A DNA stretch of 40,323 nt, taken from Klebsormidium nitens (Eukaryota > Plantae > Klebsormidiophyceae). Position numbers and translations under genes: made by a program. The notes under the pieces are model-generated. The model saw only the letters and a program-made list of their open reading frames with translations, did not search any database and was not told the origin of the DNA. Numbering within the stretch: the stretch's first letter is position 1; each line of letters starts with the position of its first letter. Location: contig DF237677.1 in assembly GCA_000708835.1 (NCBI GenBank), positions 1 through 40,323 on the forward strand, given 5' to 3'. This document shows positions 977-22,870 of the stretch, one piece after another.

Positions 977-980
977 TTTG

Positions 981-2052: not shown

Positions 2053-2202
2053 TATTTGGTTGCCAGACTCAGGTGGCTTAATAGCAACTACTGTCCCCAC
2101 AGTCCGCCAAAGCAGCCGGAGTGCGCAACAGCAGCCTGACAAAAACGGGAGTGCAAGGCAGGCTCGTTCTCACAAGCACTTAAATCCCATCAGTGAGACA
2201 AC

Positions 2203-3192: not shown

Positions 3193-4521
3193 AGGTCTAT
3201 GTAACAAGATCAGTAGAATGAAGTCTCATAAGGACAAACGTGGACACAATATATTACTCAATTGGCCTCCTGGAGGGAGCCTGGTGCTCTGTGTGATCCA
3301 TGCGATTGCCCATCATGCCATGCATGTCTGACAGGAGATTATGCAACAATGACGAATGAAGAGAATGTCATCATAGTGGAACGTAAGACATGCTTGATAC
3401 ACACACTTAGGGGAACGCATCTGCTCTTAGAGCACCAACCTACAGATGGATGCTGCTGCTATCACCGTTGCACGGGCCGCCAATCTGGCAACCTACGGGA
3501 ACAACCACAACAAAGAAGCGCAAGGTCTGCGACCGATCTCGCGTGCACTTCAGGAGGACGGCCGTCTCAAGTTCCACAAGTCCTTTGAGAAGGCTCTTGC
3601 TGACTTCTGCGTATATATGCCCGGTTTCCCCGCGCTCGGAGTACAGCTCAAAACCACGGGTGTAAACTGGATACAGAACCGTACAGACTACGAGTACTAC
3701 AGCTTCTCGCAAACTGGTGGATACGCTGGCCTGTTAATGATCTTCGTGGCCCTCCACACGCAGCCCCGCCGCATCTGGCTTGCGGATGGATCCAGGGTGA
3801 CCCGCATGAAGGTTGTGATTCCAGTAACCCTCCGGCGGGCCGTGAGGTGTGACGAAATTCGAGAGATAAAGCTCGCCACCCTGGCAGACGCAATCTACAC
3901 GATCTATATGGCAGCCCTATCAGGCTCTAGCAACTACGTGCTCCGCAGCCCAATGGACCACGAGAAGCCCACGGAACGAAACGCCTTGGCGGAGTACAAT
4001 GCCTTCCAGCGTCTTCAGTGCTCATTACCGGTCCTTTTCATGGACCCTCCAGCCGAGTACCTGAGCTACGATTATATCGTGGATGGCAGAAGGTGGCAGC
4101 TGAAGTTGGCCCGATACAATCGTAAATCTGATTACTACTCCGTGGGCTGCCATAAGCAAGCAGGCAGAGTGAACGGGAAGTGCACACAGAGGCAGTACGA
4201 AGTCGGCGATTTTGATTTCCTCTGCATCCAACTCCCCGAGGCCCCCAAGACCTTGCACTGCTGCTACGTGATCCCGCAGAGCATATTGGCCGATCATGAT
4301 CTCGTCGGCAACGCCACCAAGTCTTCCGGGGCTGTCCTTGTATACCCGGATCGACTGGTGACCGCCAGGAATGCTGTGCACAAACAGGGCGTTCACTGGA
4401 CGGAGACTTATCGCATCGATTTTGCCCGTGACCCGTTGGCACAATTGGCGCGCATTACACAGGGAGCATATCAAAGGGCAGGGGTCAGCAGTCAGAGCTT
4501 CGCAGACATGTCAAACATTAG
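3112..4521 (+). repeat. Direct repeat pair: RNR2 3' end (3112-3170) and endonuclease 3' end (4466-4521)
   Basis: GCCTATCAGCGGGCAGGGGTC...CAGAGTTTCGCAGACATGTCAAATATTAG versus GCATATCAAAGGGCAGGGGTC...CAGAGCTTCGCAGACATGTCAAACATTAG. Confidence 0.92.
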
Positions 4522-4537
4522 CGACGAGGAGTTTTGA
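3446..4537 (+). CDS. Tandem PD-(D/E)xK-type (D...QxK) endonuclease, probable free-standing homing endonuclease; C-terminus copied from RNR2
   Basis: Two nuclease-like motifs, ADFCVYMPGFPALGVQLKT and YDYIVDGRRWQLK. Ends [23 protein letters not shown]. Confidence 0.7.
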   Translation: MDAAAITVARAANLATYGNNHNKEAQGLRPISRALQEDGRLKFHKSFEKALADFCVYMPGFPALGVQLKTTGVNWIQNRTDYEYYSFSQTGGYAGLLMIFVALHTQPRRIWLADGSRVTRMKVVIPVTLRRAVRCDEIREIKLATLADAIYTIYMAALSGSSNYVLRSPMDHEKPTERNALAEYNAFQRLQCSLPVLFMDPPAEYLSYDYIVDGRRWQLKLARYNRKSDYYSVGCHKQAGRVNGKCTQRQYEVGDFDFLCIQLPEAPKTLHCCYVIPQSILADHDLVGNATKSSGAVLVYPDRLVTARNAVHKQGVHWTETYRIDFARDPLAQLARITQGAYQRAGVSSQSFADMSNISDEEF

Positions 4538-4588
4538 GGTGTTGTTAAGAAGAGACAAATTCTTTCCAACATTACAACCATAAGTCAT

Positions 4589-5410
4589 ATGGCAGCTGAG
4601 TTCAAACACGTGCCACTTACCCCAGAGACCAAGAAGCCTGCTCCTCCTCCACCTTACAGCCCGCCTCCTAGCCCTGTGCCCGCCAGAGGCCTCAGATTCT
4701 TCCGTAGGATTCATGAGCAAACGGCTGCTGTCACAGGTGGTGCATGGCAGGCAGTATCTACAGAATTCATTGCAACGTTCATGTTTGTGTACTTGGGTGT
4801 GGGATCAGTAATTGCATGTGGGCTGAGCCCCGACTCTAGGATCCATAGCACATCGGCACTCCTCGCATCGGGCCTTTCAAACGGCCTCGCACTGTCAGTC
4901 GGCACCGCCTTGGGTGCCACCAATGGGGTGGGGCACTGCAACCCATCCTTGACATTTGCCTATGCCGTAACGGGACGGTTGAGCATGCTACGAGCCATGT
5001 ACATGATATTGGCACAATGCGCCGCATCCTTTGGAGCGACCGGGCTTGCAGTAGTAGCATACCCTGTCTCCCTTTCTACCAACCGCCTCCATGCATGGTC
5101 GCTCGAAAGGGCTTTCTTGCTGGAACTGATTGCAGCATGCATCCTCACAATCACATCCATGGGGCTTCGAGCCAAGAAGGGATTGCAAAACCCTGCAGCT
5201 CCTGTTATCATGGGCTTTCTGATGACGGCAAGCATGGTGGCGGTGTCTCCATTTGCTGATGGAACAGTGAATCCCGCACGGAGTCTTGCGGTTGCGGCAT
5301 TCACGGCAGGTTGGAAGGATGCTTGGATCCATGTGATTGCACCACTGAGCGGGTCCATAGTTGGTGCCGTGCTTCACGAACTCATGATTGAAAGTACTGG
5401 TGAACCGTAG
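4589..5410 (+). CDS. Aquaporin / major intrinsic protein (NPS and NPA boxes)
   Basis: TEFIATFMFVYLG, GHCNPSLTF, GTVNPARSL, WIHVIAPLSG; several hydrophobic segments; intronless. Confidence 0.92.
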   Translation: MAAEFKHVPLTPETKKPAPPPPYSPPPSPVPARGLRFFRRIHEQTAAVTGGAWQAVSTEFIATFMFVYLGVGSVIACGLSPDSRIHSTSALLASGLSNGLALSVGTALGATNGVGHCNPSLTFAYAVTGRLSMLRAMYMILAQCAASFGATGLAVVAYPVSLSTNRLHAWSLERAFLLELIAACILTITSMGLRAKKGLQNPAAPVIMGFLMTASMVAVSPFADGTVNPARSLAVAAFTAGWKDAWIHVIAPLSGSIVGAVLHELMIESTGEP

Positions 5411-7254
5411 ACTTTCACTGCCTACTTCCTCAATTTCTTCTCACTTATTGCAGGAGGTTGATGGCCCTGATACAAAAACAGGCTCGCAACAAGAAAGGTT
5501 CTGGAATTCAGAGCGGGAAATCTGACAAACGCGCTGTATTAGAGTTTCAGTACCGGAGAGCTGTGAAGAACAAGGAAAAGTGGGCCAAGGAGAAGCTTCA
5601 AAGTAGGCTGAGCGCAAGAGAGAAACAGAAAAAGAACAAAGAGGTTCAAGATGCAATTAATGCTGGACAGAAGAGGCGGCAGAAACTCAACGAAGAAGAG
5701 GCGGCTACCGTGCGCAGACAGGTTGCACTGGGAGAGAGAGCTGCAATGGGACGGGAGCTCAGCAAGCAAGGGAAGGGGAAGAAGAAGAACAATCCCAACC
5801 AAAACACGGGAACTCAGGACGTGAGCCACATTGAAATGGTTCAAGGACTCAATAGACAAGGCAAGCAGAACAGTCCTGGGCAGTCTGCAAAAGCGCTTGA
5901 ACCGACCGAGACAGCCCGGAACAACCCTCTCTTTGAGAGCAACGTGCATAATGGGCAGCAATCTGCGACCCTCTTGGCACCTCAACAGATGCTTGGAGGA
6001 TCCGTGGTGACCAGTCACGACAATCCACTCTTCAAACCGGGCACCCCAGACGTGAGGAGCAGCTTACGGCTCCTTAAGAGCTCTCAAGGGAAGAGGTCGT
6101 TGAGGCCAGTTGCTACCCTGCCCGACTACCTAGAACCGCAGCCGCCTGCCGCGAGAAAACGACGGGATGAAGCACGGACAATCGACAACGACATCTACAA
6201 CAGTTTACAAGAGATGGATCTAGCAAAGATAGCAGAAAACGAGGAGAGGGAGGTGGTAGAACGTCTCGAGCAACTCCGATTCGCCCGTCCTGCAATCCCG
6301 AAACTTCGACGTCGCCCCTTTTTCTATGAAGTCGGTGCTGCAGTGTCCTCGCCCGACGAGAACGGGTGGGATGATCATGCGGAGGCTAAGCTGATTGAGA
6401 CCGAACTTCCGATGCCCCGCAAGGGTCACCCGCTCACTGATCGCATCTACCTGCGTGAACGGCATCCAAGAGCTAGTGAGAATCTGCCTGCCCCGTACAA
6501 ATCGACGGCCCTGCCTTATCGGCCACGTGCTACAAAGCTGCCAGTTTTTGACACTCGCAACCTACCAGTACCCAGCAGTATTGTGGTGCCCCCGCTGAGG
6601 AAAAGGCGCTCTACGTGGTACGAGGATCTTCCACCTACAAGCAATCTGAACGTCCCTACCTTGCGGACTAGGAGGGCTGGTCATCCTGTTGATATCCTTC
6701 CACCCACAACCATTGATGTTGCCACCACACCCCAAAGAACTCGACATGAATTGCTTGTGAAGGAACTTCCGCCACCTAACTACAACATGACCACTCCGCT
6801 CAGAGAACGTCGTCAAGGACTTGTGAACAATGAACTATTCCCGACACACAACAACCGCTCTCCCGGACCCCCTGACGACCTGCCGTCATTGAGTGGTCCT
6901 TTTGTCACGCCGCTCCGGATACGGCGTGCCGAAGACATGCTCACAGTCGCATCAACTTCCAGTGGCCTCCTACCCCCAATCCAAGCGAGAGAGTTTAAGA
7001 ACCTTCGAGGCAAGAGAGGGCCAGTAAACAATCTGGCCTTCAAGAAGCAGAACAACGCAGGGCCCCAACCGGACATTGGGCCGACAGGTGCATTCCCTCA
7101 GGGACGGATCACAGGAAAGCTGGAAAGGTCGCTTGCATTCAAGAAGCGTAACAATCAGAGGCCTCTCCTGAAACATGGCTCGACCATGGCCAAAAAGCCA
7201 AGCAGCTGGTCTCCGTTTGGGAGCCGAACAAAAGGGTACACGAGGATTGAGACA

Positions 7255-7610
7255 GACTCTGGAGGTGACGGCAGCTCGAAACAGGCGTCCGGCTGGTTCA
7301 AGGGCTGGTCAAAAAGGGGAGGGTACCCGAGTACTCCAAAACTTGATCCCAACAAGCAAGCCCCCAATGGAAGATTTGACAAGTCCCAGCACAAGAGCTC
7401 AAGGGACTCGGGGGGTGACGGGAGCTCGAAACAGGCGTCCGGCTGGTTCAAGGGCTGGTCAAAAAGGGGAGGGTACCCGAGTACTCCAACACTTGATTCC
7501 AACAAGCAAGCCCCCAATGGAAGGTTTGACAAGTCCCAGCACGAGAGCTCAAGGGACTCGGGGGGTGACAGGAGCTCGAAATAGGCGTCCGGCTGGTTCA
7601 AGGGCTGGTC
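7255..7610 (+). repeat. Coding tandem repeat, 150-bp (50-aa) unit, about 2.4 copies
   Basis: Units start at 7255, 7405 and 7555 (DSGGDGSSKQASGWFKGWS...). Confidence 0.95.
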
Positions 7611-7998
7611 CTCCGATCCTTGGGGTCCAAGGCAAGGTTACAGTAGTGACCCCAACAAGCAAGTTGCAGTAGAAAGTGCCCAGAAGCCCAGGCAACAGCA
7701 AGAGACCACGAACATGCAGGGTGCTAACAAGCAGGCCGCGAAAGAACGCTCTGAGAAGGCTCAGAAGCTTAAGAATGATTTGAAACGGGCAGAGAGAGAG
7801 GAAAAAACTTGGTTGCAAAAAGAGAAGGAAGAACGGGGTATCAGACAATTGCAAGAACAGCTGGATAAGAAGATGAGATCCAAGCAGATAAGGAATGGTT
7901 GGGACGGAACTCAGAAGCTCATAGACGAACAGAACAGGAAAGAAAGAGAGAGGCGAGATGCACAGCAAGCGACCACGAGCTTCGGAACCAACCCCGTA

Positions 7999-8238
7999 TT
8001 GCCAGGCAAGCCCATGCTTGCAGCCACACAGCCGGGAAGGCAGAATGGCACTCGCTATCCACAAGAAGCACTGCAAGCAGCTGTTGTGACCGCACCAAGC
8101 ACTGAGCTCAAGTTGCCAGGCAAGCCCGTGCTTGCAGCCACTCAGCTGGGAAGGTCAGAGATGCAGACTGTCACTCGCTATCCACGAGAAGCACTGCAAG
8201 CAGCTGTTGTTAAACCACCTGGCACTGAGCTCGAGCTC
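7999..8238 (+). repeat. Coding tandem repeat, about 114-bp unit, 2 copies
   Basis: TTGCCAGGCAAGCCC at 7999 and 8113; LPGKP.LAATQ.GR...TRYP.EALQAAVV...TEL occurs twice. Confidence 0.9.
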
Positions 8239-8604
8239 GTCAGCCACACAGCACCCACAAGAGGCTCTGGCTGGACAGCATTCTCACCCAATGATAAACG
8301 GTCCCTTTACTATGGCAAGGCAGCAAAACAAGTTGCTCGTAGAAAGGTTCCCACCACGACAATGCACATTCCCATACCACAGTCACCCGCACCAGTTGCT
8401 GCCACCACAATCCTCACAAAGCAGGGAGGTGGTTCTGTGGAAAGACTGCCCCTCTCACTGTCATCCATGAGAGGGTTGCCATGGAGCGACCCAAGATGCA
8501 GGGGAGTGAATCAGTAGCACTGAGAATGCTCATCGAGCGGGAAAAGATGCACATTTCTCAAAAGCGTGCGGCAATTGTTGCACTTGATAGATTGCTTTCA
8601 AGGC

Positions 8605-8781
8605 TCACCTGAGCGCTCGGCAGTTTGCAGATGACCTTTCCAGGTTAGTAACACAATACACCGGAAACCTGTCAATGTCCACAAGCAGCTCCCTTCGCTC
8701 ACGCTTCTTTGATGCAACAAGGATGACACATGTGGCTGCTGCCATCAGCATGATGAGGCACCATGCACGGTCCATTGCCAT
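8605..8781 (-). CDS. Small membrane-anchored protein or fragment; weak resemblance to the glycosyltransferase family 25 N-terminus
   Basis: Hydrophobic N-terminus, then KKRERR, then FPVYCVTNLERS (compare GT25 YVINLDR). Ends at AG/GTGAGC, which could be a stop or a splice donor; no downstream exon found. Confidence 0.3.
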   Translation of the reverse strand: MAMDRAWCLIMLMAAATCVILVASKKRERRELLVDIDRFPVYCVTNLERSSANCRALR

Positions 8782-9149
8782 AGAATAGCAAAATTGTTGG
8801 ACGGACAATTTGGGGATTCCGCATGTCTTTCTTATTGGACCACCGACAATGTTTGGTAGCGGCGGTCAGCCAGGTGATGGGTCTGCAAACATTTGTCGAA
8901 CCTGTGTATGAAATGACACGTAAAACCTTTACTCCTGTGCGCTTCTTCTCTACAACATCCCCAAATTGTGTCAGATAGGGTTTATGGTCCCAATGAGTGC
9001 CCACTGTGCTAGCCGCGGCGCCGCACAAGTGCGAGGGTGGCCTTTTCGAGCCCGGTTCTGAGTCAGTTAGGGTTCGGAGGTACCGGTACGAGCATCGAGG
9101 GGGGTCAGTGGGTCCCTACAGCGGCCTACAATGTTTCATTTTTGTGGGG

Positions 9150-9430
9150 GTATGGCCTTACATACATACATATTGGCCTTTGGATTCCACCAGAGAAACT
9201 CTGTACTACTAATCTGTTATATTCTCTCCTCCGAAAAGTAGATTATAATATTGTATCTTTTTGAGGGTATGGCCTTACATACATACATATCACCAATTGG
9301 AAAGCAAAGGGGGAACTCTGTACTACTAATCCGTAATAATTCCTTCCCTGGAGAAGAAAGAAAAAATAACAGATTGTAGTACAAGAGTCCTGGGTTCCCC
9401 CGCTGCTTGCCAATATGTATGTATGCAAGG
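9150..9430. repeat. AT-rich module upstream of topo II: two direct copies (117-bp period) plus one inverted copy
   Basis: GTATGGCCTTACATACATACATAT exact at 9150 and 9267; AACTCTGTACTACTAATC exact at 9197 and 9314; inverted near-copies at 9368-9388 and 9410-9430. Confidence 0.9.
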
Positions 9431-11258
9431 TCCCTTGGAAGAAAAACAAAGAGTTTTGGTATGGGGATTGAAGCCCTCAAATCCGCCCTTTGTATGACTT
9501 TCAAGCTGGCGCCGCCGGGCGTGGGTAGGCAGACCATGGCACACTCAAGCCACAGGCTGCCAATCTGCACTCATCCAGGGCCAACTTTCCTTCCTCCATA
9601 TTGCTTTCATTGTGGCCTGCAGCTCAGAATGTTCCTCTCTGTTCAACATGGCCTCCACTGCTCAGATCTCAGCAACTTACAGGCGCTGCACGCCCATCGA
9701 GCACATCCGAACTCGACCAGACTCCTATGTAGGCTCCGTTGTCCCAGAGCAGACCAGGACCTGGGTCATCGAGGAAGGGCGTGCCAAGGAGAAGGAGATC
9801 ACTGTCGTCCCTGGCCTCTACAAGATTGTGGATGAGATCCTGGTCAACGCAATCGACCAGACAAAGGTGGACCCGACCGTCGACTCCATCAAGGTCGAGG
9901 TTGATGTGGAGGCAGGGCTCATCAGCGTGACCAACAGCGGGCGAGGCATCCCTGTTGTTGAGCACGACTCTTACAATATGTACATACCTTAGCTGATCTT
10001 TGGCAACCTCCTGACCTCCTCAAACTATGATGACTCAGAGTAGCGGACAACCGGCGGGCGCAATGGGTACGGGGCCAAGCTGACCAACGTCTTCAGTCAG
10101 TCCTTTGCTGTTGAGACCCTGGACATAGAGAGAGGCATCAAGTATTGCCAGGTCTGGGAGGACGGGATGTCCAAGTGCAAGCCGCCAAAGATCTCCCGCC
10201 CCAAGAACCCCAAGCACGGCTACTGCAGGATCTCCTTCAAGCCCGACCTAGCTGTCTTCTCCATGGAACGCCTGAACGACGAGTTTGTCAGCCTCCTTCA
10301 CCGGAGGGCCCACGACGCCGCAGCCTGCACGCGGCCGAGCGTGAGGGTGTCTTTCAACGGCAAGAACCTCCCGTCCAAGGGTGGATTTGAGAGCTACTGT
10401 GAGCTGTTTATCGGCCCCAAGAAGGAGGCGCCGCGCGTGTTCTTCCGCCCAAACGAGCGCTGGGAGGTTTGTGTGGCTGCTTCCGCGGACGGCTTCCAAG
10501 CCATCTCGTTCGTCAACGGGGTGCACACGGCTCTGGGCGGCACCCATGTGGAGCACGTGGTTGCGCCGCTCACCCGGAGGGTTGCCGAGACGCTGCAGGG
10601 CAAGGTGAAGGGGGCTACTATCCGGCCAGCACATGTCAGGGAGAAGCTGATGCTGTTTGTGAATGCGACGCTGGTCAACCCCACCTTCAGCTCTCAGACA
10701 AAGGAGATGTGCACACTGAAGGTGAGCCTTTTTGGGAACACGTGCGACGTGCCTGACGAGGTGGTTGGCAAGGTGGTGAGCAAGCTAGGGATTGCTGAGG
10801 CGATCGTCGCAAAGGCGAGGGAGCGAGAGGCCAAGACCCTGTCACGAACGGACGGGAACAAGACGGGCGTCATCAGAGGGATCCCAAAGCTGGAGGATGC
10901 CAACAAAGCAGGTGGCAGGCGGAGCTCCGAATGCACGCTCCTGGTGGTAGAAGGGGACAGCGCGCGTGCTTTCGCCATGGCAGGGCTCTCGGTGGTTGGC
11001 AGGGATCTGTATGGGGTCTTTGCCCTGCGGGGGAAGATTCTCAACTGCAGGGACGCCCCAATCAAGGCCATCGCTGAGAACAAGGAGATTGCCAACCTCA
11101 AGCAGATCCTGGGCCTCCGAGAGGGCCACAAGTACAAGTCGCTCTCCGAGCTGCGCTACGGACGAGTCATGCTCCTCACGGATGCTGACTGCGATGGCAC
11201 GCACATCCGGGCGCGCTTCCTCAACTTTGTTGAGTTTGGCTGGCCGGAACTCATCGAG

Positions 11259-11391
11259 GTGAGCCACACATCCAGTGAGGGCTCTCTGACAATGGTATGC
11301 TGGATTTCCGCAGTCTTGTATCTGCTCGTGCCTTTGTCTGCCGCCGTCCCTGCCTCCTTCTCCATTCAAAAGTACAACGATTCTTTTGCAG
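11259..11391 (+). other. top2 intron 1 (133 nt, GT-AG, phase 0)
   Basis: GAG/GTGAGC ... TTCTTTTGCAG/CTG joins WPELIE to LGFAWH. Confidence 0.88.
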
Positions 11392-11521
11392 CTGGGGTTT
11401 GCGTGGCACCTGAGGACCCACGTGGTCAAGGCGTTCAAGAACAGCCAGACGCGTGCGTTCTTCACGGAGCGACAGTACAGGGAGTGGGCACAGACGAGCG
11501 AGGCCCGTGGTACCTGGCGCA

Positions 11522-11992
11522 TCAAGTTCCTGAAAGGTGTGGGCTCCCAGGGACTCGGTACCTCCCGGGGCCAGTCAACCCCTCCCTTTCGTCTTGGACC
11601 GGCTGGAAACCATAGCGCATGTAGAGGGCCTGTAGCCTGCTCAAGAGTGCGTCTTCGCCTGTAGGCTGCTCTTCGGCCAAAGGATAGCAGAAAAGCTGCA
11701 CTTCACTGATACCGAGGGAGTACATGTGCGCGAGTGCGGTGTTCAGCAGCAGAAACGAGAGTCCCAAACCCCGGAACGGTCTGGCGACACCCATAAGGCT
11801 TATGTATGCACTTGTCTCAAAGAGCTGATAGTTGAGGTATGCAATCTTTTGAGGAATGGCTCTGATTGCTGCGCCTGTGGTGAGCAATTCGATGGTCCCA
11901 GCAGCAAAATCATGGCGAGTCCTGACCTTCTGTTGGCTCAAATCTGAAACCGGCACCTGGACAAGCGGCTCTAGGCGGGCCACCATTGCCAT
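11522..11992 (-). CDS. GNAT-family N-acetyltransferase nested antisense in top2 intron 2
   Basis: YISLMGVARPFRGLGLSFLLLNTAL (acetyl-CoA motif A), GISEVQL and LYMRYGF. ATG at 11992 or 11986; the stop overlaps top2 exon 2 by 15 nt. Confidence 0.85.
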   Translation of the reverse strand: MAMVARLEPLVQVPVSDLSQQKVRTRHDFAAGTIELLTTGAAIRAIPQKIAYLNYQLFETSAYISLMGVARPFRGLGLSFLLLNTALAHMYSLGISEVQLFCYPLAEEQPTGEDALLSRLQALYMRYGFQPVQDEREGLTGPGRYRVPGSPHLSGT

Positions 11993-12045
11993 ATCTCTTG
12001 ACCCTCTACCCAAAGAGCACTGTCCTAAGCCCATGGGCGATGCAG
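11537..12045 (+). other. top2 intron 2 (509 nt, GT-AG, phase 1), containing an antisense GNAT gene
   Basis: AAAG/GTGTGG ... GATGCAG/GTCTGGGC restores IKFLKGLGTSTAKDAK. Confidence 0.82.
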
Positions 12046-12471
12046 GTCTGGGCACGTCCACTGCCAAGGATGCCAAGGATATCTTCAGCAACATGAGCAA
12101 GGTCACGTACACGACCGACCCCGGGGCGGCAGCGGCCATGCAGCTGGCCTTCCAGAAGGCAAGGGCAAACGACAGGAAGAGGTGGATTGTTGAGGCGATC
12201 GCAAAACCAGCGCCGGAGCCAGTGGGAGAGCGGGTGACCCTCTCGGAGATGGTGGACACCGAGCTGGTCAACTACTCCATCGCCAATGTCCGGCGCTCCA
12301 TCCCCAGTGCAATCGACGGTCTGAAGCCCTCGACGAGGAAAATTGTCCACGTCAGCATCAAGAGAAACGTTCGGGAGGAGTTCAAGGTGGCCCAGCTAGC
12401 CGCAGCGGTCGCAGAGGGGAGTGCATACCATCACGGTGAGAAGCGAACCTCTTGCGCAGATGGAGCGCATG

Positions 12472-13222
12472 AGCAAGTGATTTCAACCCCCCTCCTATAG
12501 TCAAAAAAGGGGGGTCCCAAATTCTCAAACACTTTTCAAAATTAGTCTCCATCCGTGTTTATGCGTGAGCTTGCCGTGACCTACAAACCTATGCTTTCTT
12601 ACCGGAATGGTTATAGTGTGCTGGGAACTACCAAGTCTTAGGTCTTAGCTCTTCCTTCAGGGATGGCTTCAACACGCGTGCGCGCATAAGCAAGTCATTT
12701 CAACCCCCCTCCTATAGTCAAAAAAGGGGGGTCCCAAATTCTCAAACACTTTTCAAAATTAGTCTCCATCCGTGTTTATGCGTGAGCTTGCCGTGACCTA
12801 CAAACCTATGCTTTCTTACCGGAATGGTTATAGTGTGCTGTGAACTACCAAGTTTTAAGTCTTAGCTCTTCCTTCAGGGATGGCTTCAACACGCGTGCGC
12901 GCACAAGCAAGTGATTTCAACCCCCCTCCTATAGTCAAAAAAGGGGTCTCCCAAATTTCAAACACTTTTGAAAATTGCGCTCCATCCGTGTTTGTGCGTG
13001 AGCTTTCCGTACACTACAGACATTTAATTTCTTACTGGAATGGCTATGGAACGCTGTGAACCGTAAGTTTTTGGTGCAGGGATGGCTTAAACACACGTGC
13101 GCGCATAAGCAAGTGATTTCAACCCCCCTCCTATAGTCAAAAAAGGGGTCTCTCAAATTCTCAAACACTTTTGAAAATTGCGCTCCATCCGTGTTATGCG
13201 AAAAGGTTGGCCGTTGACTACA
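12472..13222. repeat. Non-coding tandem array, units of 217, 217, 202 and about 115 bp
   Basis: AGCAAGT(G/C)ATTTCAACCCCCCTCCTATAGTCAAAAAAGGGG starts at 12472, 12689, 12906 and 13108. Copies 1-2 have an ACCCCCCT/AGGGGGGT stem. Confidence 0.95.
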
Positions 13223-13223
13223 A

Positions 13224-13745
13224 TCAGACAACCCTTCGGAAATTGGAAGTGTTGAGGGTCTGACGGGTGAACGGGTTTCTCGCACCCTCGTGCAACCTTT
13301 GTAATGCGTCTTTGTGATACGCCCTCGGAGCCTTTCCACCCCTCAACTCGCTTTCAAGGTAGATGTAGTTCCTCCGGTTTGCGGGGCGCTTGTTCAAGGC
13401 CATGAAGTTTGTGTTGATGAAGTCCGTATCATTCGAGACGGCGCCTGCTCGACCGTTCCGCACACTAGCCATGTTAAGGCGCCTATGACAAGGAGCAACC
13501 TCCATAGTTGCAGGAGTCTCGTAACCGACGACACTGCGAGGCCCTTCGGAATGCAACGCCCAGACAACGAGGTCGCTCAATGACCACTCATCGTGCATAG
13601 GAGGCTCACCTGACTCCACGTAAACGACTTCAAAGAGCTCTGGTGCTACCAACCGAGCGGACGTGGTGGCACCGTTCTCATGCTGCAGCTGGATGACGTC
13701 TCCAACGTCCATATAACGCAAGGTCTCCCAGATCTCCCTCTCCAT
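13224..13745 (-). CDS. Hypothetical viral protein nested antisense in top2 intron 3; C-terminal D-F-I...Y...L...NPFTRQ motif
   Basis: Intact 173-aa ATG ORF. The C-terminus (NDTDFINTNF...YIYL...YHKDALQRL...RNPFTRQTLN) resembles short U-box-like tails seen in algal-virus proteins (recalled, not searched). Confidence 0.72.
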   Translation of the reverse strand: MEREIWETLRYMDVGDVIQLQHENGATTSARLVAPELFEVVYVESGEPPMHDEWSLSDLVVWALHSEGPRSVVGYETPATMEVAPCHRRLNMASVRNGRAGAVSNDTDFINTNFMALNKRPANRRNYIYLESELRGGKAPRAYHKDALQRLHEGARNPFTRQTLNTSNFRRVV

Positions 13746-13904
13746 TCAGCATAACACAGAACCAGAATTTACTTTTTGTTGCAGGTGAGGAGAGCCTGAG
13801 CGGCGCCATCATCAACCTTGCGCAGACGTTTGTGGGATCCAACAACCTCAACCTGCTCGAACCGGTCGGAATGTTTGGAACACGCCTGGCCAACGGGAAG
13901 GACA

Positions 13905-14184
13905 GTGAGTGCACTGCGTTTGAGCCGTGTTCAAAACCTACGTGCCAATGAAGGACAGCATGTCAGCCAAGTCACTGGTGGGAGCCCCTCACTACGCCAC
14001 CCTGGCATCATGTTACAGGCCTGTGGTGGCAACCAAAGCGCTCGGCATGCAAGATGCCGCGTGTCTTGCAGCTCATGGCGCAGCCCTCTCTGCATGCTGG
14101 TACATTGCCAATGACTATCTCGAACGTCAAAAGCTGAAGGAGAAGCGCAGGCAGCTCCTTAAGAAGCAACTTGGGCGACCGCAG
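13905..14184 (+). other. top2 intron 4 (280 nt, GT-AG, phase 1)
   Basis: GACA/GTGAGT ... CCGCAG/GTGCC restores NGKDSAAPRYLFT, five codons before the catalytic Tyr. Confidence 0.88.
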
Positions 14185-14217
14185 GTGCCGCGCCGAGATA
14201 CCTCTTCACGCACCTGA
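13948..14217 (+). CDS. Possible small protein nested in top2 intron 4 (hydrophobic segment plus basic coiled tail)
   Basis: 89-aa ATG ORF spanning most of the intron, with coding-like codons (YLERQKLKEKRRQLLKKQL); runs 33 nt into exon 5 in another frame. Confidence 0.4.
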   Translation: MKDSMSAKSLVGAPHYATLASCYRPVVATKALGMQDAACLAAHGAALSACWYIANDYLERQKLKEKRRQLLKKQLGRPQVPRRDTSSRT

Positions 14218-15212
14218 CAAAGGCTGCGCTCTGCGCCTTCCATCCTGCCGACGCCCCCCTCCTGACCTACCTCGAAGAGAACGGCAAGGCCATAGAGCCG
14301 GCCTACTTTGTCCCGACCGTGCCCTTGATCCTCCTGAACGGTGCCTCCGGCATTGGCACTGGCTTCTCCACGTACGTCCCCAACCACGCTCTGGAGGACG
14401 TCATCGCCAACATCCGGGCTATGCTGCAAGGCCTGGACCCGGTCGAGATGCACCCTTCCTGGGCTGGCTTCAAGGGGACCGTCCGGGCGACCGAGAAGGG
14501 AGAGTACGTCGTCTCCGGGGTGTACGAGAGGATCGACAGCAGCCGCATCCGCATCACTGAGCTGCCAGTTGGGACGTCAATCGACGCCTACAAGGCTTTC
14601 CTGGAGAGCGACAAGCTTGGGGCCCGTTCCATCAAAAACGACTGCACGGACGCGGTTGTTGACTTCACCGTGGAGTTCAGCACCGGGAGGCTCGAGGCCA
14701 TCCTGCCTGACATCGAGAGGGAGCTCTGCCTCACCAGGAAGCTGAGCACCAACAACATGCACCTGTTCGACTCGAACGGCCACATCAGGCGCTTCGAGAC
14801 CGTGACCGACATCCTGCGGGAGTTCTTCGGGGTGCGGCTGAGCCTCTACGAACGCCGCCTGCTGCACCTGATCCGACAAAAGGAAGAGGAGCTGGCTGCC
14901 TGCTCCTACCGGGCGCTCTTTGTGACGAGTGTGCTTGATGGGGGTGTCCGACTCCTGAAAGCCAAGGTGGCGGACGTCCGTGCCGACATGAGCGCGGCAG
15001 GGATCCCCGAGACCTACCATCAGCGGTTCATGTCGCTCCCCCTGTCAAGCCTGACGGCGGACGAGGTGGAGAGGCTCTTGGCAGCCAAAGAGGCCCTGGT
15101 GTCAGCCCTTGACCTCCTCAAGGGCAAGACGGCCCCGGCTCTGTGGGAGGAGGACCTGCTTGAGTTGGAGAGAGCGCGGAAAATTGGAGCATAGATAGCC
15201 TGGTTGCTTGGT

Positions 15213-15956
15213 ATGGACTTTGGAGTGTGCGCAGATGCCTCATGTAACGAGAGGGTTTACCAGAAACACGACCGGTACTGCATGAAACACTTTCAGATCT
15301 CACCGAATCAAAGAGTGCGCGACTTTGACATTACTGAGAAGACCAGCATGGATGCCATCATGAAGGACCTGCACGCTCTAACACGATACACGTGGTACTA
15401 CAAGCCCGACGAGGATGACGTCCAAGTTGCAGAGTTGTCCTTGCAATACGCTCTGCAATGGAAGGCTGTGAGCTACGATGCAATTGCCCGCCTGGCCGTC
15501 GTCATGCAGTACCTCTATTGCACAATGGCGGCCCTCGAGCCCGTTGACGTGTACCTAAACCCTTACTCTCTCCCGGAAGAGCCCGATTATCACCCACTCG
15601 GGGAGACCCGATCGTCCCTCATGTACCTCATAGAGAGCTGCGGGATCCACGCTGCAAAGTTCTCGGGGCTCTCTAGGAGCCTCCCTTTGGTTGCGTTTGC
15701 CAGGCGCCGCTGCTACAGGCAGGCAGCAGACGTCTGGTGGAAGAGCAGGTTGAAGCTCGAGGCTTTTCACAAGGCCCTCGGCTGGCTGTGGTTCACCCTC
15801 AAGCGCTTCACACAGGCAGCCTCTCTTGCCCGCAGAGAGGGCCTCGCAGCAAGGGAACGCACTGTCCTGCGCATGGATGCTGAGGTGCTCGGTGGGCTTG
15901 CCGAGACCCTGTTCAAAACTGCATTGCTGCACTACCAAGAGCTACTCACAGTCTGA
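15213..15956 (+). CDS. Hypothetical protein
   Basis: 247-aa ATG ORF with an N-terminal C-x4-C...C-x2-H cluster; packed closely after top2. Confidence 0.7.
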   Translation: MDFGVCADASCNERVYQKHDRYCMKHFQISPNQRVRDFDITEKTSMDAIMKDLHALTRYTWYYKPDEDDVQVAELSLQYALQWKAVSYDAIARLAVVMQYLYCTMAALEPVDVYLNPYSLPEEPDYHPLGETRSSLMYLIESCGIHAAKFSGLSRSLPLVAFARRRCYRQAADVWWKSRLKLEAFHKALGWLWFTLKRFTQAASLARREGLAARERTVLRMDAEVLGGLAETLFKTALLHYQELLTV

Positions 15957-15985
15957 AAGATTTTGTGGCATTGGTTACATAGAGG

Positions 15986-17770
15986 ATGCAAGTGACAATC
16001 GGGGACTTTGTAGACAAGTGGTTGGCGGAGTTGCGTGACGCACAATCGGAGGCTAAGAAGCACGAGTATAGCAGCGATACACGCCTGTACTATGAGAAGC
16101 ACGTGCAGGATTTGCTGGACGAGTTGGCAAGGGAGCTCGTGACTTACATTGAGCACCCACCGGGGTACGAGAGCAACGAGAAGGCCGGGATAACTGCCAA
16201 AGATGGCAAACTCGTTGTCGCTCTGGATGGCGACGATTACAACACGGCAAGCGAGGCGACCCGCAGCGCCCGCTTGAGCTTTGTGATGGGAAAGATCCTC
16301 AAGGAGAAGGGCACTCTGGCGCAGGGTGGCGATCTCAGCCTATACAATGCGGTGAGCAATCTCTTGAAACCATCGCGCCTGAGCCCTCCGCCTGACAGGC
16401 TTTCGCTCAACCCAGAGTACGTTGACTTCAACACAAAGAGCCTTCCTGACGCGCAAGAGGATGGTCAGACCCACATCTTCTACGATCCAGCAAACGTAAG
16501 CGACAACCTGGAGCTGAAGAAAGTCTTCCGATCAAGGGTGAACCTCGAAGATGTTGATCAGTACAGGAATGCCAATCACCGCTTTGGGACTACCTTGACG
16601 AATCGGTTCATGCACCCCGACTACCGGACACTTGACAAGCGCCTTGCAAACAGGGTTCCCCTCATGAACAAGAACACGTTTGAGAAGGGTAAGAGCAACG
16701 TGAAGGCTTGGGTTGCCAATCGGACTGCTCTTCCTCTAAACAAGAACGCATTCGAGAAAGGGAAAGGCAACATGAAGGCTTGGGTTGCCAGTCAGAACAA
16801 GCGAGTCAACAAGCAGGCTGATGTTGCGCTAAATAATCAAGGCCTGACTGCAACCGCTGAGGACAAACGCCTCATTGCTGAAAGCATACCTTTGGGAGAA
16901 GAGAGCACTGCAAAGGCTATTGCAAACGTGGCTCTAACCACCAACGGGGGCCCTCCCCCAGTGAAAGCAGTCAGTGGAGCCCTCAAGGACATTCTCCAGC
17001 CAGGACAGGTGACACCAGAATCTGTCGCAACAGTCTTCAAGCAGAACAACCTCGTAGCTTCCAAAAATGGTCACGAAAGTGTTGCAAATGTTGCAACAAC
17101 AGGAAACCCATCGGCCGTGCTTGCCGCGGTGGCGCAGGTTGCAACATTTCCTGCTGGTGGTGAGGCCCCAACTGAGGCAGTGGTTTCGGCCGCCAACGCA
17201 ATCAACAAGTCGGCAAAGGCCAATCACCAAACTCCCAACTTTGCAAACTTTGATAGGTCGCAGCTGGGCACGGGCACAAAGACTGGTCCGAACCTCAAGA
17301 CTCCCAACCAGTTGAATGCAAAGGGCGGCTCAAACGCTTCCAAGATGGCGGCAACTCAGGTTGCCCTGATTGGCAACGGATTCAGAGCAAACGGCCCGGA
17401 GGGACTCGCAAACATTGCAAAAAAGGCCGGAGCTCCAAATAAGGATCTGCGTGAGACAATTCAGAACAACACCACAGGTGCAAGGAACAATGTCCAGGTT
17501 GCAAATGCGGCAGAGGCTGTAAAGGTGCTCACAGGGTCTAAACTGTCAGAATCAATGGCTGCAAACGGGCTCAACAAAATCAACACCAGCAAGAATCCTT
17601 TCGTGTCCAAGAACAACAATAAGAACAAAGGAATCTCAGGATCGAACCTGTCAAACTCAATGGCGGCAAACGGATTCAACAAAACAAACACCACAAAAAA
17701 TCCCTTTGTGACCAAGAACAACACGGCCAACAAACCAATTGTAAGTTCAACCGGGATGGGCTGGAAGTAA
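15986..17770 (+). CDS. Asn/Ala/Lys-rich hypothetical protein with short internal repeats
   Basis: 594-aa ORF; duplicated PL(M)NKN(T/A)FEKGK.N.KAWVA and SMAANG.NK.NT.KNPFV.KNN. Confidence 0.8.
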   Translation: MQVTIGDFVDKWLAELRDAQSEAKKHEYSSDTRLYYEKHVQDLLDELARELVTYIEHPPGYESNEKAGITAKDGKLVVALDGDDYNTASEATRSARLSFVMGKILKEKGTLAQGGDLSLYNAVSNLLKPSRLSPPPDRLSLNPEYVDFNTKSLPDAQEDGQTHIFYDPANVSDNLELKKVFRSRVNLEDVDQYRNANHRFGTTLTNRFMHPDYRTLDKRLANRVPLMNKNTFEKGKSNVKAWVANRTALPLNKNAFEKGKGNMKAWVASQNKRVNKQADVALNNQGLTATAEDKRLIAESIPLGEESTAKAIANVALTTNGGPPPVKAVSGALKDILQPGQVTPESVATVFKQNNLVASKNGHESVANVATTGNPSAVLAAVAQVATFPAGGEAPTEAVVSAANAINKSAKANHQTPNFANFDRSQLGTGTKTGPNLKTPNQLNAKGGSNASKMAATQVALIGNGFRANGPEGLANIAKKAGAPNKDLRETIQNNTTGARNNVQVANAAEAVKVLTGSKLSESMAANGLNKINTSKNPFVSKNNNKNKGISGSNLSNSMAANGFNKTNTTKNPFVTKNNTANKPIVSSTGMGWK

Positions 17771-17821
17771 CAAAGTGCGTTCCATCTGTGGCAGTTTCTC
17801 CTCTGTAGCTTGGAGGAAACC

Positions 17822-18622
17822 ATGCTTCCAACCGATTGCATCCGAGGCATCAAGATGAGGATTGCTGCCCGAGTGCCTACACCCCCGGGGGCCATCTTCT
17901 ACACACTCCGAAGCGACGCGACCGGGATGTTTGACTCCTTTTACCGGCTCCGTTACGACCAGAGGGCCCTGGGCCGCTGCCTGATTGACCCAAGTAGCTG
18001 GACGATCATGCATGATTTCGGCCAAACGTGCCCTGGGGAGGACCCAAGGTGCATCTCGCACAGGGGCACGGACTACCTGCTGGACAACACCTGGGGCAGC
18101 AGCAGCTTGATCGTGCCAGCTGACAACTTCAAAGTGTGCAAGCTTCCCTCAAAGGGCAAGAACCTTAGCCTCATCTCTCACGGTGACGAGCTCCTCTGCA
18201 TCGAGTGGCTCCGACCCCTGACCGTTCTGTCAACGAGCGAGTCGCCCTACCCTGATACTTGGAGGCGGACAAGGGCCCGGAAGGAGATTCCGGACTACAG
18301 CCTGCGCGGTGGCACCCCTGGTTACAAGACCCCGGTCGACGGTGTATATGTCGGCTTTGGGCACCGGACGACGGCAGGCCCCAAGGGTGAGGTCAAACAC
18401 ACCCCATTTGCATGGCGGCTGGATGTCAAGAATTGGCAGATGAGCTTTGAAGAGGTGGGGGGGCAGCTCGAGCGGGCTATCACATACCCCACCTGTGTTG
18501 CACATCACAACGGGAGGCTCTACTTGGTCACTGCAGAATCCCACCTTCCCTGGTTCGGTGCCCTTCAGGAATTCTTTACATGCATATATGAGCTGCATTT
18601 CGGAGAAAATACAGCGGTATAG
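17822..18622 (+). CDS. Putative five-bladed beta-propeller glycoside hydrolase/phosphorylase (GH130-like)
   Basis: GEDPR motif, KN-hydrophobic motif, LRGGTP...YVGFGH. Confidence 0.55.
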   Translation: MLPTDCIRGIKMRIAARVPTPPGAIFYTLRSDATGMFDSFYRLRYDQRALGRCLIDPSSWTIMHDFGQTCPGEDPRCISHRGTDYLLDNTWGSSSLIVPADNFKVCKLPSKGKNLSLISHGDELLCIEWLRPLTVLSTSESPYPDTWRRTRARKEIPDYSLRGGTPGYKTPVDGVYVGFGHRTTAGPKGEVKHTPFAWRLDVKNWQMSFEEVGGQLERAITYPTCVAHHNGRLYLVTAESHLPWFGALQEFFTCIYELHFGENTAV

Positions 18623-18629
18623 GAGGCAC

Positions 18630-19643
18630 ATGGGGCTGTGCATTGGGAAGCAGAGAGAGCATGGGACTCAAGATCAACAACCATCGCCAGAGCAGGTTGT
18701 GCCAAGGGCAACCCTGTCAAACAAGGAGTTTGGATTCAACCAGCACTTTAAGGACATGTACACGGTCAAGGAGGAGATTGATCGCGGATCGTTTGGCAGG
18801 ACGCACATCGCAGAGGCCAAGTCACAAAAGGGTGGCACTGTGGCCGTAAAGATCATCCCAAAGAGCTCCATGATCAGTGAGGCCGCAATTATGGACGTGC
18901 ACAGAGAGGTCCAGATACTGAGCCTGCTGTCAGGCCACGAGGGGATAGTGGAGTTTATGGCAGCTTACGAGGACTTGATGAACGTGTACATTGTGATGGA
19001 GCTATGCCAAGGTGGTGAGCTGATGGATCACATCCTCAGCAACCAGGGGCCATACAAGGAGGCAACCGCAATCGAGCTGGTGTGGCAGATCCTCACGGCA
19101 GTTGCCTACATGCATGAGAAGAAAGTCATCCACCGCAACATCAAGCCTGAAAACTTCATCTTTGCCAACGAGAAGGACAACATCATAAAAGCGATAGACT
19201 TTGGGCTCTCCTACCGGTGTGAGGAGAACGAAACTATCAAAGAAGTGGTGGGCAGCCCATTCTTTGTCGCACCAGAGGTCCTAAAGCAGGCCTACAATCT
19301 CAAGGCAGACGAGTGGAGCGTGGGGATCCTGACCTACATCCTGCTGATTGGAACACGGCCATTCTTTGGGAGGACGGACTCGGAGATCTTCAAGGCCGTG
19401 CTGAGGGACGAGCCTGACATTGACAACGCGGACCTCAGCCTGCCCGCAAAAGACTTTCTGAAACGGCTGCTCAACAGGAACGTTGAGTCCAGGGCAACAG
19501 CAAGAGAAGCCTTGGATCACCCTTGGCTCAGAGATAGATCCGCAATGCCCGTTCAACAGGGCTGCGGCAGTAATGACACATGCTCCGCCCTCGATAGCAC
19601 TCGTCACATATGCAATGACCGCACGGAATCATTGCAAACCTGA
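18630..19643 (+). CDS. CDPK-related (CRK-like) Ser/Thr kinase domain without EF-hands; catalytic HRD reads HRN
   Basis: MGLCIGK myristoylation/palmitoylation-type start, VAVKII, YIVMELCQGGEL, HRNIKPENF, DFGLS, APEVL, EALDHPWL. Confidence 0.85.
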   Translation: MGLCIGKQREHGTQDQQPSPEQVVPRATLSNKEFGFNQHFKDMYTVKEEIDRGSFGRTHIAEAKSQKGGTVAVKIIPKSSMISEAAIMDVHREVQILSLLSGHEGIVEFMAAYEDLMNVYIVMELCQGGELMDHILSNQGPYKEATAIELVWQILTAVAYMHEKKVIHRNIKPENFIFANEKDNIIKAIDFGLSYRCEENETIKEVVGSPFFVAPEVLKQAYNLKADEWSVGILTYILLIGTRPFFGRTDSEIFKAVLRDEPDIDNADLSLPAKDFLKRLLNRNVESRATAREALDHPWLRDRSAMPVQQGCGSNDTCSALDSTRHICNDRTESLQT

Positions 19644-20091
19644 CCTGGGCGTGAGTGCAGACCGGGCACTCCCCGCATATGTCTGGATTGATTGCCCGTT
19701 TCATCTTGCTCGTCACCTCGTAGAAAACAGCCACTTTTGCGTGTACTTGTTCCAATCGGATTACCCTCTCAGTCAACTCCCTTTCCAGCCCGTTCTTCAC
19801 ATCTTTGACAAGGCTTTGTATGACTTCCATGGCTGAGGCCTCGTGCACGTGATGCATGACCTTGGACAAACCCTCCTCAAAGGTTAGCAGCTTCCGGCGG
19901 GCCTCTTCGACCTCCTTGCCACAGGCCTCCTGCTCTGTCTGCAAGGGCTTTATGAGGCGATCGACCTCCAGGGAAGCCTTGGCAAATGCGGCAGCATTGG
20001 GCAGGTCCGCAAGAAACATCCAGTCGTTGATCGAGTTTGATTCCAACAGCGAATAGTCCTCCTGGCCATTGTAAGCTGGCGTCATCTCCAT
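19528..20091 (-). CDS. Coiled-coil plus C3HC4 RING-finger protein (putative E3 ligase)
   Basis: CPVC...IPCGHCICDEC...CHYCRSPV; its 3' end overlaps the kinase 3' end by 116 nt. Confidence 0.85.
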   Translation of the reverse strand: MEMTPAYNGQEDYSLLESNSINDWMFLADLPNAAAFAKASLEVDRLIKPLQTEQEACGKEVEEARRKLLTFEEGLSKVMHHVHEASAMEVIQSLVKDVKNGLERELTERVIRLEQVHAKVAVFYEVTSKMKRAINPDICGECPVCTHAQVRFAMIPCGHCICDECYRGRSMCHYCRSPVERALRIYL

Positions 20092-20118
20092 GAGAGGCCT
20101 CGCGACTTTTGGGACCCA

Positions 20119-21315
20119 CTAGAAACGTGCAGAGGCCCCCACACTTGTCAGGCGCTGGATCCCTTGGTTGGGCTTCAGTGCCTGGTCCCTCACGCGCCGC
20201 ATCATGCCAAGCTTGTTGAGGAAGTCCGAAAACGAGAGATCGCATGTCACATAAACAGATAGAGAATTGGAGATGGACAGGACCGGCAACACGGGGTCCC
20301 GGAACAGCCGAGAGACCCGCCCTAGCAGCTTGCTCTTGCGGCTGTCACGTGCCACCTCGAGCTCGTGCTTGACCGATGCCCGAAAGGTGTGCATCCCCTT
20401 GTCTTGGAGAAGCCACATCGTGTCGAGCTGCATGTCGGATACGTCCCCAACTCCCGAGAGGTCGTCCAATCGGTTGCATCTCAAGGTGGATGCACCATGA
20501 TGAGCATCACAGCTGTCAGGAATGTCCAACTTTGCAGGCTCTTTGACCGACCAATCCACCAAGCTGCAAAAGCTGCCTCCGTAGAGGTCGACCTGGCCCC
20601 TGTGACGCACCTGCCCACCCGCCTCAGTTGTTGCTGTACATGTGGCAGAGAGGAGCACGCGCAAGACTTTTGTACTGCATCCGGGATCCTCTCCGTCTGC
20701 TTCCCCGAGTGAAGCTTTGAGTGTCAGGTCAGCCACGGCACCCCTTGATGATCCTTTTGAGGTCGAACTGAAGCACTGGATGATGTAGCTCACGCCCCTC
20801 GCGAGCTGCCCACGTCTCTGAAAGGCTTGCATCGACGGGTTCTGCCTCACGCTTGCAACCCTAGCCCGCTTCCACTCTCGGACGAGCTTGTATCCAGACC
20901 TCTGCCAAGCACGCGACTGGGTGTAGGCGTCAACTTTAGGGGCTTCAGGCTCCTCAACCATGTGGACACGAACCTTGATGGGGCTGTGGGGGTGAAAGGT
21001 GACCGAGACATCCCAGGACCCTTCCAAACCAAGTCCGAGGAGCCGTGACATGTGAGAGGCCTCTACAAACCGAAAGTCCATACGGTTGGCATTCTTGTCA
21101 CGGCTCAGGCTGCTCTCCTCGGGGTCGTGAGAGGTTGCGTTCTTCCGGGCCTCTTGAGAGTACGGCCCATCTCGGAACCAGTACAGGAAGCAACTCTCTT
21201 CAAAGGCCTGCTCCTCGTTTTTTGGGAGCTCTCCCTTTAAGCGCGCATCGATCAGATGGTCAACGGCCATCCCGTCCCCAGCGTTGGCTGCTGCAATGAG
21301 CCGACCCCACTCCAT
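20119..21315 (-). CDS. Hypothetical protein
   Basis: 398-aa ATG ORF packed closely with the RING gene; no motif recognised. Confidence 0.7.
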   Translation of the reverse strand: MEWGRLIAAANAGDGMAVDHLIDARLKGELPKNEEQAFEESCFLYWFRDGPYSQEARKNATSHDPEESSLSRDKNANRMDFRFVEASHMSRLLGLGLEGSWDVSVTFHPHSPIKVRVHMVEEPEAPKVDAYTQSRAWQRSGYKLVREWKRARVASVRQNPSMQAFQRRGQLARGVSYIIQCFSSTSKGSSRGAVADLTLKASLGEADGEDPGCSTKVLRVLLSATCTATTEAGGQVRHRGQVDLYGGSFCSLVDWSVKEPAKLDIPDSCDAHHGASTLRCNRLDDLSGVGDVSDMQLDTMWLLQDKGMHTFRASVKHELEVARDSRKSKLLGRVSRLFRDPVLPVLSISNSLSVYVTCDLSFSDFLNKLGMMRRVRDQALKPNQGIQRLTSVGASARF

Positions 21316-21388
21316 CTGTCATACTGTACAAGAAAAACAGGTTGCAGAATTCTCGTCCCACTTTTTTTTGTGATGCCATTCCACGGCG

Positions 21389-21670
21389 ATGGCTTCTCAA
21401 GTCAAGAAGTACAGGCTAGAGCGGAGGCAGGTCATGAAGTCTGAGAAGGACCACACCTCGTCGGGCCTCAGGAAGGATGACCTTATGTACAAGAGTCATG
21501 ATGGAAAGTCCAGGACTATCGTGTCCCGCAAGAGGCACGAGAATGCCTTGAACAATCCTAAACTCCAGGCGTGGTTGGACCACGTCAAGAGCGTTTACGA
21601 AGACATCAAACCCCTCGGCAAGACATACAAGGATGCCATGCAGCTCGCTGCAGCCACCTACAAACGGTGA
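21389..21670 (+). CDS. DVNP-like (dinoflagellate/viral nucleoprotein) basic DNA-binding protein
   Basis: T-S-S-G-L-R-K-D-D-L-M ... IVSRK ... L-Q-A-W follows the DVNP pattern T.GGL.K.DL...IVSK...W. Confidence 0.72.
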   Translation: MASQVKKYRLERRQVMKSEKDHTSSGLRKDDLMYKSHDGKSRTIVSRKRHENALNNPKLQAWLDHVKSVYEDIKPLGKTYKDAMQLAAATYKR

Positions 21671-21707
21671 AGTACCATGCCACTTTTTCTACCCGTATCA
21701 CAGAACG

Positions 21708-22535: not shown

Positions 22536-22571
22536 GAGACTTATTTTGTTGGTTTATATCTGCAGTCCATC

Positions 22572-22865: not shown

Positions 22866-22870
22866 AGACT

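Follow-up and report, generated by a model that had tools for sequence, protein, structure and literature searches.

A putative acetyltransferase gene at a shared intron site of a broken, likely endogenised nucleocytovirus topoisomerase II gene

The window analysed here, a stretch of 40,323 nucleotides (nt) of Klebsormidium nitens DNA (contig DF237677.1 of assembly GCA_000708835.1), contains a topoisomerase II gene of viral type that is divided by four GT...AG segments, and a gene for a GNAT acetyltransferase lies antisense in the second of them. We regard it as probable that the topoisomerase gene is a broken, likely endogenised nucleocytovirus copy, that its four introns are likely traits of the virus lineage, and that four relatives have an antisense GNAT gene at the same intron-2 site.

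The divided topoisomerase II gene

Excision of the four segments (introns 1 to 4 in Table 1) gave a single frame of 1091 codons for a type IIA topoisomerase. Each segment begins with GT and ends with AG, as major-class spliceosomal introns do, the length of none is divisible by 3, and the peptides restored at the four junctions (^) were WPELIE^LGF, KFLK^GLGTS, AYHH^GEESL and NGKD^SAAPRY. Proteins of distant relatives matched the spliced frame across the junctions, and the Pfam domains followed one another over the pieces in the order HATPase, gyrase B, TOPRIM, TOPRIM_C and topo IV. The 1091-codon frame bears out the initial annotation of this DNA, which had placed four frame-restoring GT-AG segments at conserved topoisomerase II motifs, but that description was incomplete, as it overlooked two in-frame stops in exon 1 (9990-9992 and 10041-10043). 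Topoisomerase copies in three other DNA runs are open at the first of these stops, so the window copy is a pseudogene. A code in which TAG means Gln was ruled out, because the gene's own stop is TAG and the copies in the three runs are open at the first stop.

The four segments are likely host-type (major spliceosomal) introns. Their 3' ends, judged by eye and unscored against the host consensus, were T-rich in introns 1 and 3 and weak in introns 2 and 4. Rfam covariance models run over 9000-15300 gave no group I or group II intron match at E<=1, an absence that is no exclusion, and no second copies of the intron sequences were found elsewhere in the 40-kb window. An antisense frame of 69 amino acids (aa) over intron 1 was rejected as a gene, since its length was reached by 83 of 500 shuffles and its only matches were the antisense of exon 1.

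The same breaks could also be read without splicing, with the pieces of the enzyme made as separate subunits or joined by ribosomal bypass and with ordinary genes lying between them, as in T4 genes 39/60; the splitting of a topoisomerase gene by a mobile element is indeed known in T4-like phages (10.1101/2022.08.31.505936). But GT...AG is present at all four breaks, three of which lie inside codons of tight motifs, the intron-2 donor GT is kept in four relatives that have three different donor trinucleotides (see below), and exons 2 and 4 have only 48 and 40 codons, so a split enzyme is very improbable.

Table 1 Positions in the window of the topoisomerase II pieces, the nested frames and the surrounding blocks
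Feature	Position	Strand	Remarks
Topoisomerase II exon 1	9648..11258	+	ATPase, transducer, most of TOPRIM; two in-frame stops
Intron 1	11259..11391	+	133 nt, GT-AG, phase 0; without supported cargo
Exon 2	11392..11536	+	last 15 nt are antisense code for the final four residues of GNAT and its stop
Intron 2	11537..12045	+	509 nt, GT-AG, phase 1; inside the KGLGTS motif, conservation percentile 99
GNAT acetyltransferase gene (predicted)	11522..11992	-	antisense in intron 2, with its stop codon inside exon 2; start probably at 11986 or 11992
Exon 3	12046..12435	+	C-terminal part of TOPRIM, start of breakage-reunion domain
Intron 3	12436..13784	+	1349 nt, GT-AG, phase 1; inside the YHHGE motif; in 10 of 11 relatives
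Tandem array	12465..13200		217-nt unit repeated 3.5 times with 89% matches; three other runs show high depth
173-aa gene	13224..13745	-	antisense in intron 3; conserved family without assigned function
Exon 4	13785..13904	+	frame reconstruction
Intron 4	13905..14184	+	280 nt, GT-AG, phase 1; six codons ahead of the active-site tyrosine (residue 761)
Intron-4 open reading frame, 89 aa	13948..14217	+	sense; terminates within exon 5 in another frame; without support as a gene
Exon 5	14185..15194	+	ends without the long C-terminal tail typical of cellular enzymes
Gene-dense viral block	1..25400		ribonucleotide reductase (RNR) small subunit, MIP, kinase, RING, DVNP, expansin, CsbD, cap methyltransferase
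Host-type gene, intron-rich	26377..32070	-	AAA+ lid, NapH-like 4Fe-4S membrane domains; flanks the viral block

The acetyltransferase gene of intron 2

The GNAT frame occupies 90% of intron 2. It scored 21.1 bits against PF00583 (cut-off 20.7) and its length was reached by none of 500 shuffles, which confirmed the GNAT gene reported by the initial annotation. PF00583 was also above the cut-off in five close homologues, the R-x-x-G of acetyl-CoA binding motif A was invariant in the GNAT set, and the structure model (predicted local distance difference test score, pLDDT, 75.5) matched GNATs in Foldseek at E 2.7e-6. By its modelled fold and its motif A, the product is predicted to be a GNAT acetyltransferase. 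The full phmmer search with this protein gave nine hits, namely five close GNATs (40-48% identity), P0030, which we counted as a distant GNAT homologue and did not find in genome contigs, and three repeat artefacts (P0027, P0029, P0031), which were discarded.

Four of the five close homologues terminate in YLCRT, NLSGT, YLCRT or YLCRI. These C-termini are the antisense reading of (I/V)KF(Y/L)KG followed by the GT donor, with the stop codon within the exon, and only 352 of 3.2 million pentapeptides are compatible with an exon-2 end and donor read in antisense, which by composition means a chance of 1.75e-4 per protein. The donor trinucleotide varies among the four overlapping GNATs, which have three different ones, and GT is kept in all. 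The contigs of the four match those of the exon-3 fragments P0010, P0016, P0018 and P0008 in source and in size (6442, 3257, 6302 and 23299 nt), and these fragments are intron-split. Ahead of the overlap, the window GNAT and P0024 are each seven residues longer than the remaining three, a length difference that keeps the frame and lies at the donor end. The initial annotation had missed that the GNAT frame, like the intron-4 frame, terminates inside the adjoining exon.

Identity of the GNATs between lineages was 37-48%, whereas that of exon 3 was 77-89%, and the GNAT frames are intact, so the arrangement is old and its frame has been maintained. One gene family occupies one insertion site in diverged viruses (the window and four of the five close GNAT homologues), and these data support the view that five lineages have a conserved gene filling intron 2. 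We take the GNAT gene to be a stable resident of intron 2, with its stop codon in the topoisomerase exon. This arrangement can be explained by a virus with a nuclear phase, in which the major spliceosome of the host would excise the introns from the topoisomerase message, while GNAT would be transcribed from the opposite strand, starting near the 3' end of the intron and ending at a stop codon lent by exon 2. Because the intron is nearly all GNAT coding sequence and the donor is shared, precise loss of intron 2 would remove GNAT and damage to the donor would hit both genes, so that the gene and the intron would be locked together and inherited through long divergence. With GNAT in this position in four related viruses as well, members of the group probably store additional genes in their introns. 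The DVNP family, with a gene at 21389-21670, might include substrates of a viral acetyltransferase.

Several points weigh against this reading. The window copy of the topoisomerase is a pseudogene, and splicing is predicted from the sequence. One close GNAT, P0026, shows no exon overlap, and the GNAT distances do not track the exon-3 distances significantly (29 of 120 permutations). The relatives are known from predicted protein fragments, so co-placement of GNAT and exon 3 rests on equal contig sizes and the C-terminal overlap; every relative may itself be an endogenous copy, as none was identified as a free virus. The locking of gene and intron is also something that we infer.

A wider proposal would be that green-algal nucleocytoviruses have nuclease-free cargo introns that target the most conserved motifs of an essential gene for replication, carry and exchange antisense enzyme genes, become undeletable through exon overlap and provide a durable route of gene gain; we consider this possible but doubtful. 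The initial annotation had gone in the same direction in calling the introns gene-acquisition sites. Of that reading, the lineage-wide occurrence of the introns, the conserved cargo of intron 2 and the absence of intron 3 from one of 11 relatives are supported. Ongoing acquisition would be a further claim, since GNAT itself (37-48% identity) is an old resident, and the gene may either have come as a cassette that was then spliced out or have moved into an intron that was already there.

Intron sites in relatives and the genomic setting

Exon 3 as a query gave 12 proteins, of which 8 were 74-86% identical, and with three more from a cluster look-up the close relatives numbered 11. Similarity ended directly after AYHHG, the intron-3 site, in 10 of the 11, with different tails, while P0008 was continuous through this site and broke after KDS, the intron-4 site. 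Unrelated N-terminal tails stood ahead of GLGTS, the intron-2 site, in P0008 and P0017. At the DNA level, a contig that was 97% identical, from DNA runs under a second organism label, covered intron 1, and a diverged copy from the same run as near-identical copies had stretches of 116 letters at the intron-1 site and of 237 at the intron-4 site that could not be aligned. No clean join across any intron was found among the contigs of four DNA runs, which show presence, not absence. Based on the break points of the relatives, the unalignable inserts and P0008, the intron sites are shared, the intron sequences have diverged and intron 3 can be missing. The segments therefore seem to behave as lineage-wide introns that are not peculiar to the window copy, which is supported by the comparison of the same sites in relatives that the initial annotation had envisaged, and shared sites across diverged copies argue that the introns are older than the integration. 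Intron 3 is less locked than intron 2: one relative either lost it or never had it, and what it contains seems to vary between relatives. Where P0017 reads on into intron 3, the extension resembles a further small sense open reading frame (ORF), which is a lead only.

The distant set comprised 69 IMG/VR viral loci, whose tblastn segments were mostly 34-48% identical. No frame-breaking insert was found at the four intron sites among them, and the alignment was continuous over junctions 1 to 4 in 67, 67, 64 and 61 of the 69 loci, the others ending early or holding other in-frame inserts. The lineage was not found in the viral or metagenome contigs searched, and two short matches to it (13-18 residues) were set aside as chance. 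Viral topoisomerase II also holds long inserts that keep the frame, likely inteins, at three other conserved sites, near residues 146 (L020, L025, L040, L042, L061), 514 (L055-L058, L063) and 747 (L023, L029, L031, L033, L051). Similarity of P0012 (Logan), a 48% relative, stopped after NMAQ, which suggests an intron elsewhere in another lineage.

The long introns 2, 3 and 4 lie at the 99th, 93rd and 86th conservation percentiles (combined p 0.005), whereas the short, empty intron 1 lies at the 58th, and the likely inteins of the distant relatives occupy similarly conserved sites (percentiles 81-93). Together with the presence or absence of intron 3 among relatives and a free-standing ORF (3446-4537) that matches PD-(D/E)XK weakly (E 0.007, short of the cut-off), this would suit an origin of introns 2 to 4 as homing introns like the shintrons of mirusviruses, driven into conserved motifs by a nuclease that acted in trans or has since been lost, with GNAT and the 173-aa gene as cargo or helpers. 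We think such an origin unlikely. No nuclease was found in the introns, intron 2 coding for a GNAT fold and the others being without a family match; phase-1 G|GT sites tend to fall in glycine codons, and these are themselves enriched in conserved motifs; and the intron sequences do not recur elsewhere in the window. Homing would also be compatible with the reading that we favour, as the source of that state.

The cargo of introns 3 and 4 is weaker. The length of the 173-aa ORF was reached by 3 of 500 shuffles, and its protein has three homologue clusters at 45-52% identity with 49 invariant columns, so it belongs to a real gene family; the presence of this ORF and of a repeat array in intron 3 is thus as the initial annotation described. 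None of the contigs of its 7 homologues matched the 12 exon-3 contigs in size. Its model had a pLDDT of 64, and the best VIA comparison (Z 7.0-7.1 to YkuJ, residues 1-74, root-mean-square deviation 2.5-3.0), which barely covered the C-terminal half, was not above background; no PDB or NCBIfam match was found. An NleG/U-box-like assignment was rejected (Atlas lead 0.84, under the 0.9 line), and a comparison with GNAT showed no relationship. A 19-nt imperfect inverted repeat (13188-13206 / 13742-13760) brackets this ORF, and its core recurs in diverged copies, in a loose end close to the acceptor of intron 3. Another repeat, with two or three copies of 95-117 nt, one of them inverted, lies upstream of the topoisomerase at 9127-9430. 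Because this repeat and the 217-nt array reached 10 to 40 times the local depth in other runs (9127-9430 being very high in four), both are probably dispersed repeats, and the one at 9127-9430 is likely a dispersed viral repeat or a small mobile element. The small sense ORF reported in intron 4 is present, but it has no support as a gene, as its length was reached by 18 of 500 shuffles and no match was found in Pfam, NCBIfam or Atlas.

The viral block that contains the topoisomerase has a coding coverage of 0.84 up to about 25,400, compared with 0.30 beyond, and further lesions were found in it, namely a frameshift in the first gene near 450-480 and a stop at 24754-24756 in the cap methyltransferase. 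The neighbouring host-type gene belongs to a family which we take to be a green-algal marker. Gene-dense viral DNA, intron-rich host DNA and decay occur together here, as in giant endogenous viral elements (GEVE), and the block is likely a decaying endogenous nucleocytovirus, probably Algavirales-like, beside host DNA of a likely algal genome. The topoisomerase grouped with a set of viral contigs (support 0.994) in a midpoint-rooted tree of 53 rows, which held viral loci without cellular or named sequences and omitted 17 of the 69 loci as short or duplicate. Both of the two contigs scanned from this group carry major or minor capsid genes of nucleocytoplasmic large DNA viruses. Capsid, PolB and packaging ATPase were not found among the 29 window ORFs scanned, the rest of the element lying outside the window.

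That the other viral genes are intronless, as the initial annotation stated, held for RNR, the kinase and MIP, whose profiles were covered over 1-281 of 281, 1-263 of 263 and 7-222 of 222 positions, and for the cap methyltransferase, which is colinear with a 247-aa relative; most orphan ORFs fell outside this profile test. The block also has intronless plant-like genes for an aquaporin (4589-5410), a kinase like the calcium-dependent protein kinases (18588-19643), expansin (21633-22535) and CsbD (22572-22865). The ORF at 3446-4537 encodes 363 aa and adjoins RNR, and the two frames have similar ends (QSFADMSNI in both), which is expected of a free-standing homing nuclease with a short duplication. 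An assembly gap, a run of N, lies at 38326-39097 in the host-like part.

Since the decaying copy adjoins a host gene, the host might have added the introns after one old integration, with the nested ORFs being viral genes shuffled in during decay; introns of endogenous nucleocytoviruses are read as decay in PMC12768974, and a green-algal study left open whether GEVE introns are viral or post-integration (PMC9693826). We consider this improbable, because the same sites occur in lineages with 74-86% exon identity, the GNATs are intact at 37-48%, near-identical and diverged copies occur within one run, the adjoining viral genes are intronless and third codon positions hold 13 of the 22 exon differences listed. 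The least probable origin is capture of a cellular TOP2 as genomic DNA together with its host introns, although introns of the GT-AG kind are typical of hosts and a kinase, MIP and expansin of host-like type lie in the block. At 1091 aa the product is far shorter than the human enzymes (1531-1626 aa), it groups with viral contigs in the tree described above, and the host-like genes nearby are intronless. Host-added introns, a split enzyme and a captured host gene all fit worse than the reading of old lineage introns with a resident GNAT, and the homing origin is the main rival.

Comparison with known systems

Gene-carrying spliceosomal introns are not new as such. Medvedeva et al. (2025, PMC12768974) report over 2,000 genes within spliceosomal introns of the unrelated mirusviruses, among them 334 that encode nucleases (shintrons) and 271 of the MING-1 family, which share a single site in the terminase gene, so the initial annotation overstated the case in speaking of an undescribed system. 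That paper notes an apparent lack of equivalents in other viruses. We found such introns described only there, where a GNAT may be among the intron genes, and the literature searched, subscription papers lying outside it, yielded no nucleocytovirus case of a spliceosomal intron that carries an enzyme gene.

Host-type introns in core genes of alga-infecting nucleocytoviruses, present or absent among strains, are also known. Chloroviruses have spliceosomal introns in DNA polymerase and pdg (PMC7019647), the Ectocarpus EVEc has introns in 14 of 372 genes (PMC13236599), and a punuivirus has 61 intron-bearing genes out of 506, with a mean intron of 176 bp (PMC13692296). Those introns differ from the present ones in being short and, in the excerpts of these papers, without described genes. 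Because spliced core genes are established in active chloroviruses (PMC7019647) and active phaeoviruses (PMC13236599), removal by the host major spliceosome may be expected for the topoisomerase too. The Phycodnaviridae-like inserts of streptophyte algae are likewise endogenous nucleocytovirus blocks with plant-like captured genes, but no intron-nested genes are described in the excerpt of that paper (PMC5294986). Introners in viral elements have been described as well (PMC12166617). T4 gene 39/60 resembles the window gene in that an insertion in a viral type II topoisomerase is tolerated through a recoding step, but there the step is a 50-nt translational bypass together with a subunit split by a mobile element, not splicing (10.1101/2022.08.31.505936).

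The mirusvirus introns are the closest systems. With shintrons, the window introns share GT-AG ends, nested genes and sites in conserved parts of core genes, and a donor and an acceptor surround the gene-bearing intron 2, but no HNH, GIY-YIG, VSR or PD-(D/E)XK nuclease was found in them, the cargo of intron 2 being a GNAT and the frames of introns 3 and 4 having no match to a nuclease family. With MING-1 introns, intron 2 shares a spliceosomal type, a non-nuclease gene and one fixed site in an essential viral gene across diverged lineages. The differences are that the host gene here is a nucleocytovirus replication gene instead of a mirusvirus terminase, that the cargo is a recognisable GNAT whose antisense frame takes its stop from an exon, that one gene has up to three long introns, and that splicing is predicted here from DNA sequence. 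Intron 2 is set apart from MING-1 introns by cargo type and host gene, a topoisomerase II that groups with capsid-bearing contigs, not by direct sequence comparison. So intron 2 works like a gene-carrying intron of the MING-1 type and is neither a member of the MING-1 family nor a shintron. What is new is a nucleocytovirus counterpart of the mirusvirus introns, with a non-nuclease enzyme in a replication gene, by which a second viral phylum would have a gene-carrying intron that is stable, encodes an enzyme that can be named and overlaps the exon in a fixed way. An uncultured virus lineage would then also pass through a step that takes place in the nucleus and needs the spliceosome, and it would be clear why ordinary gene callers predict its topoisomerase in fragments.

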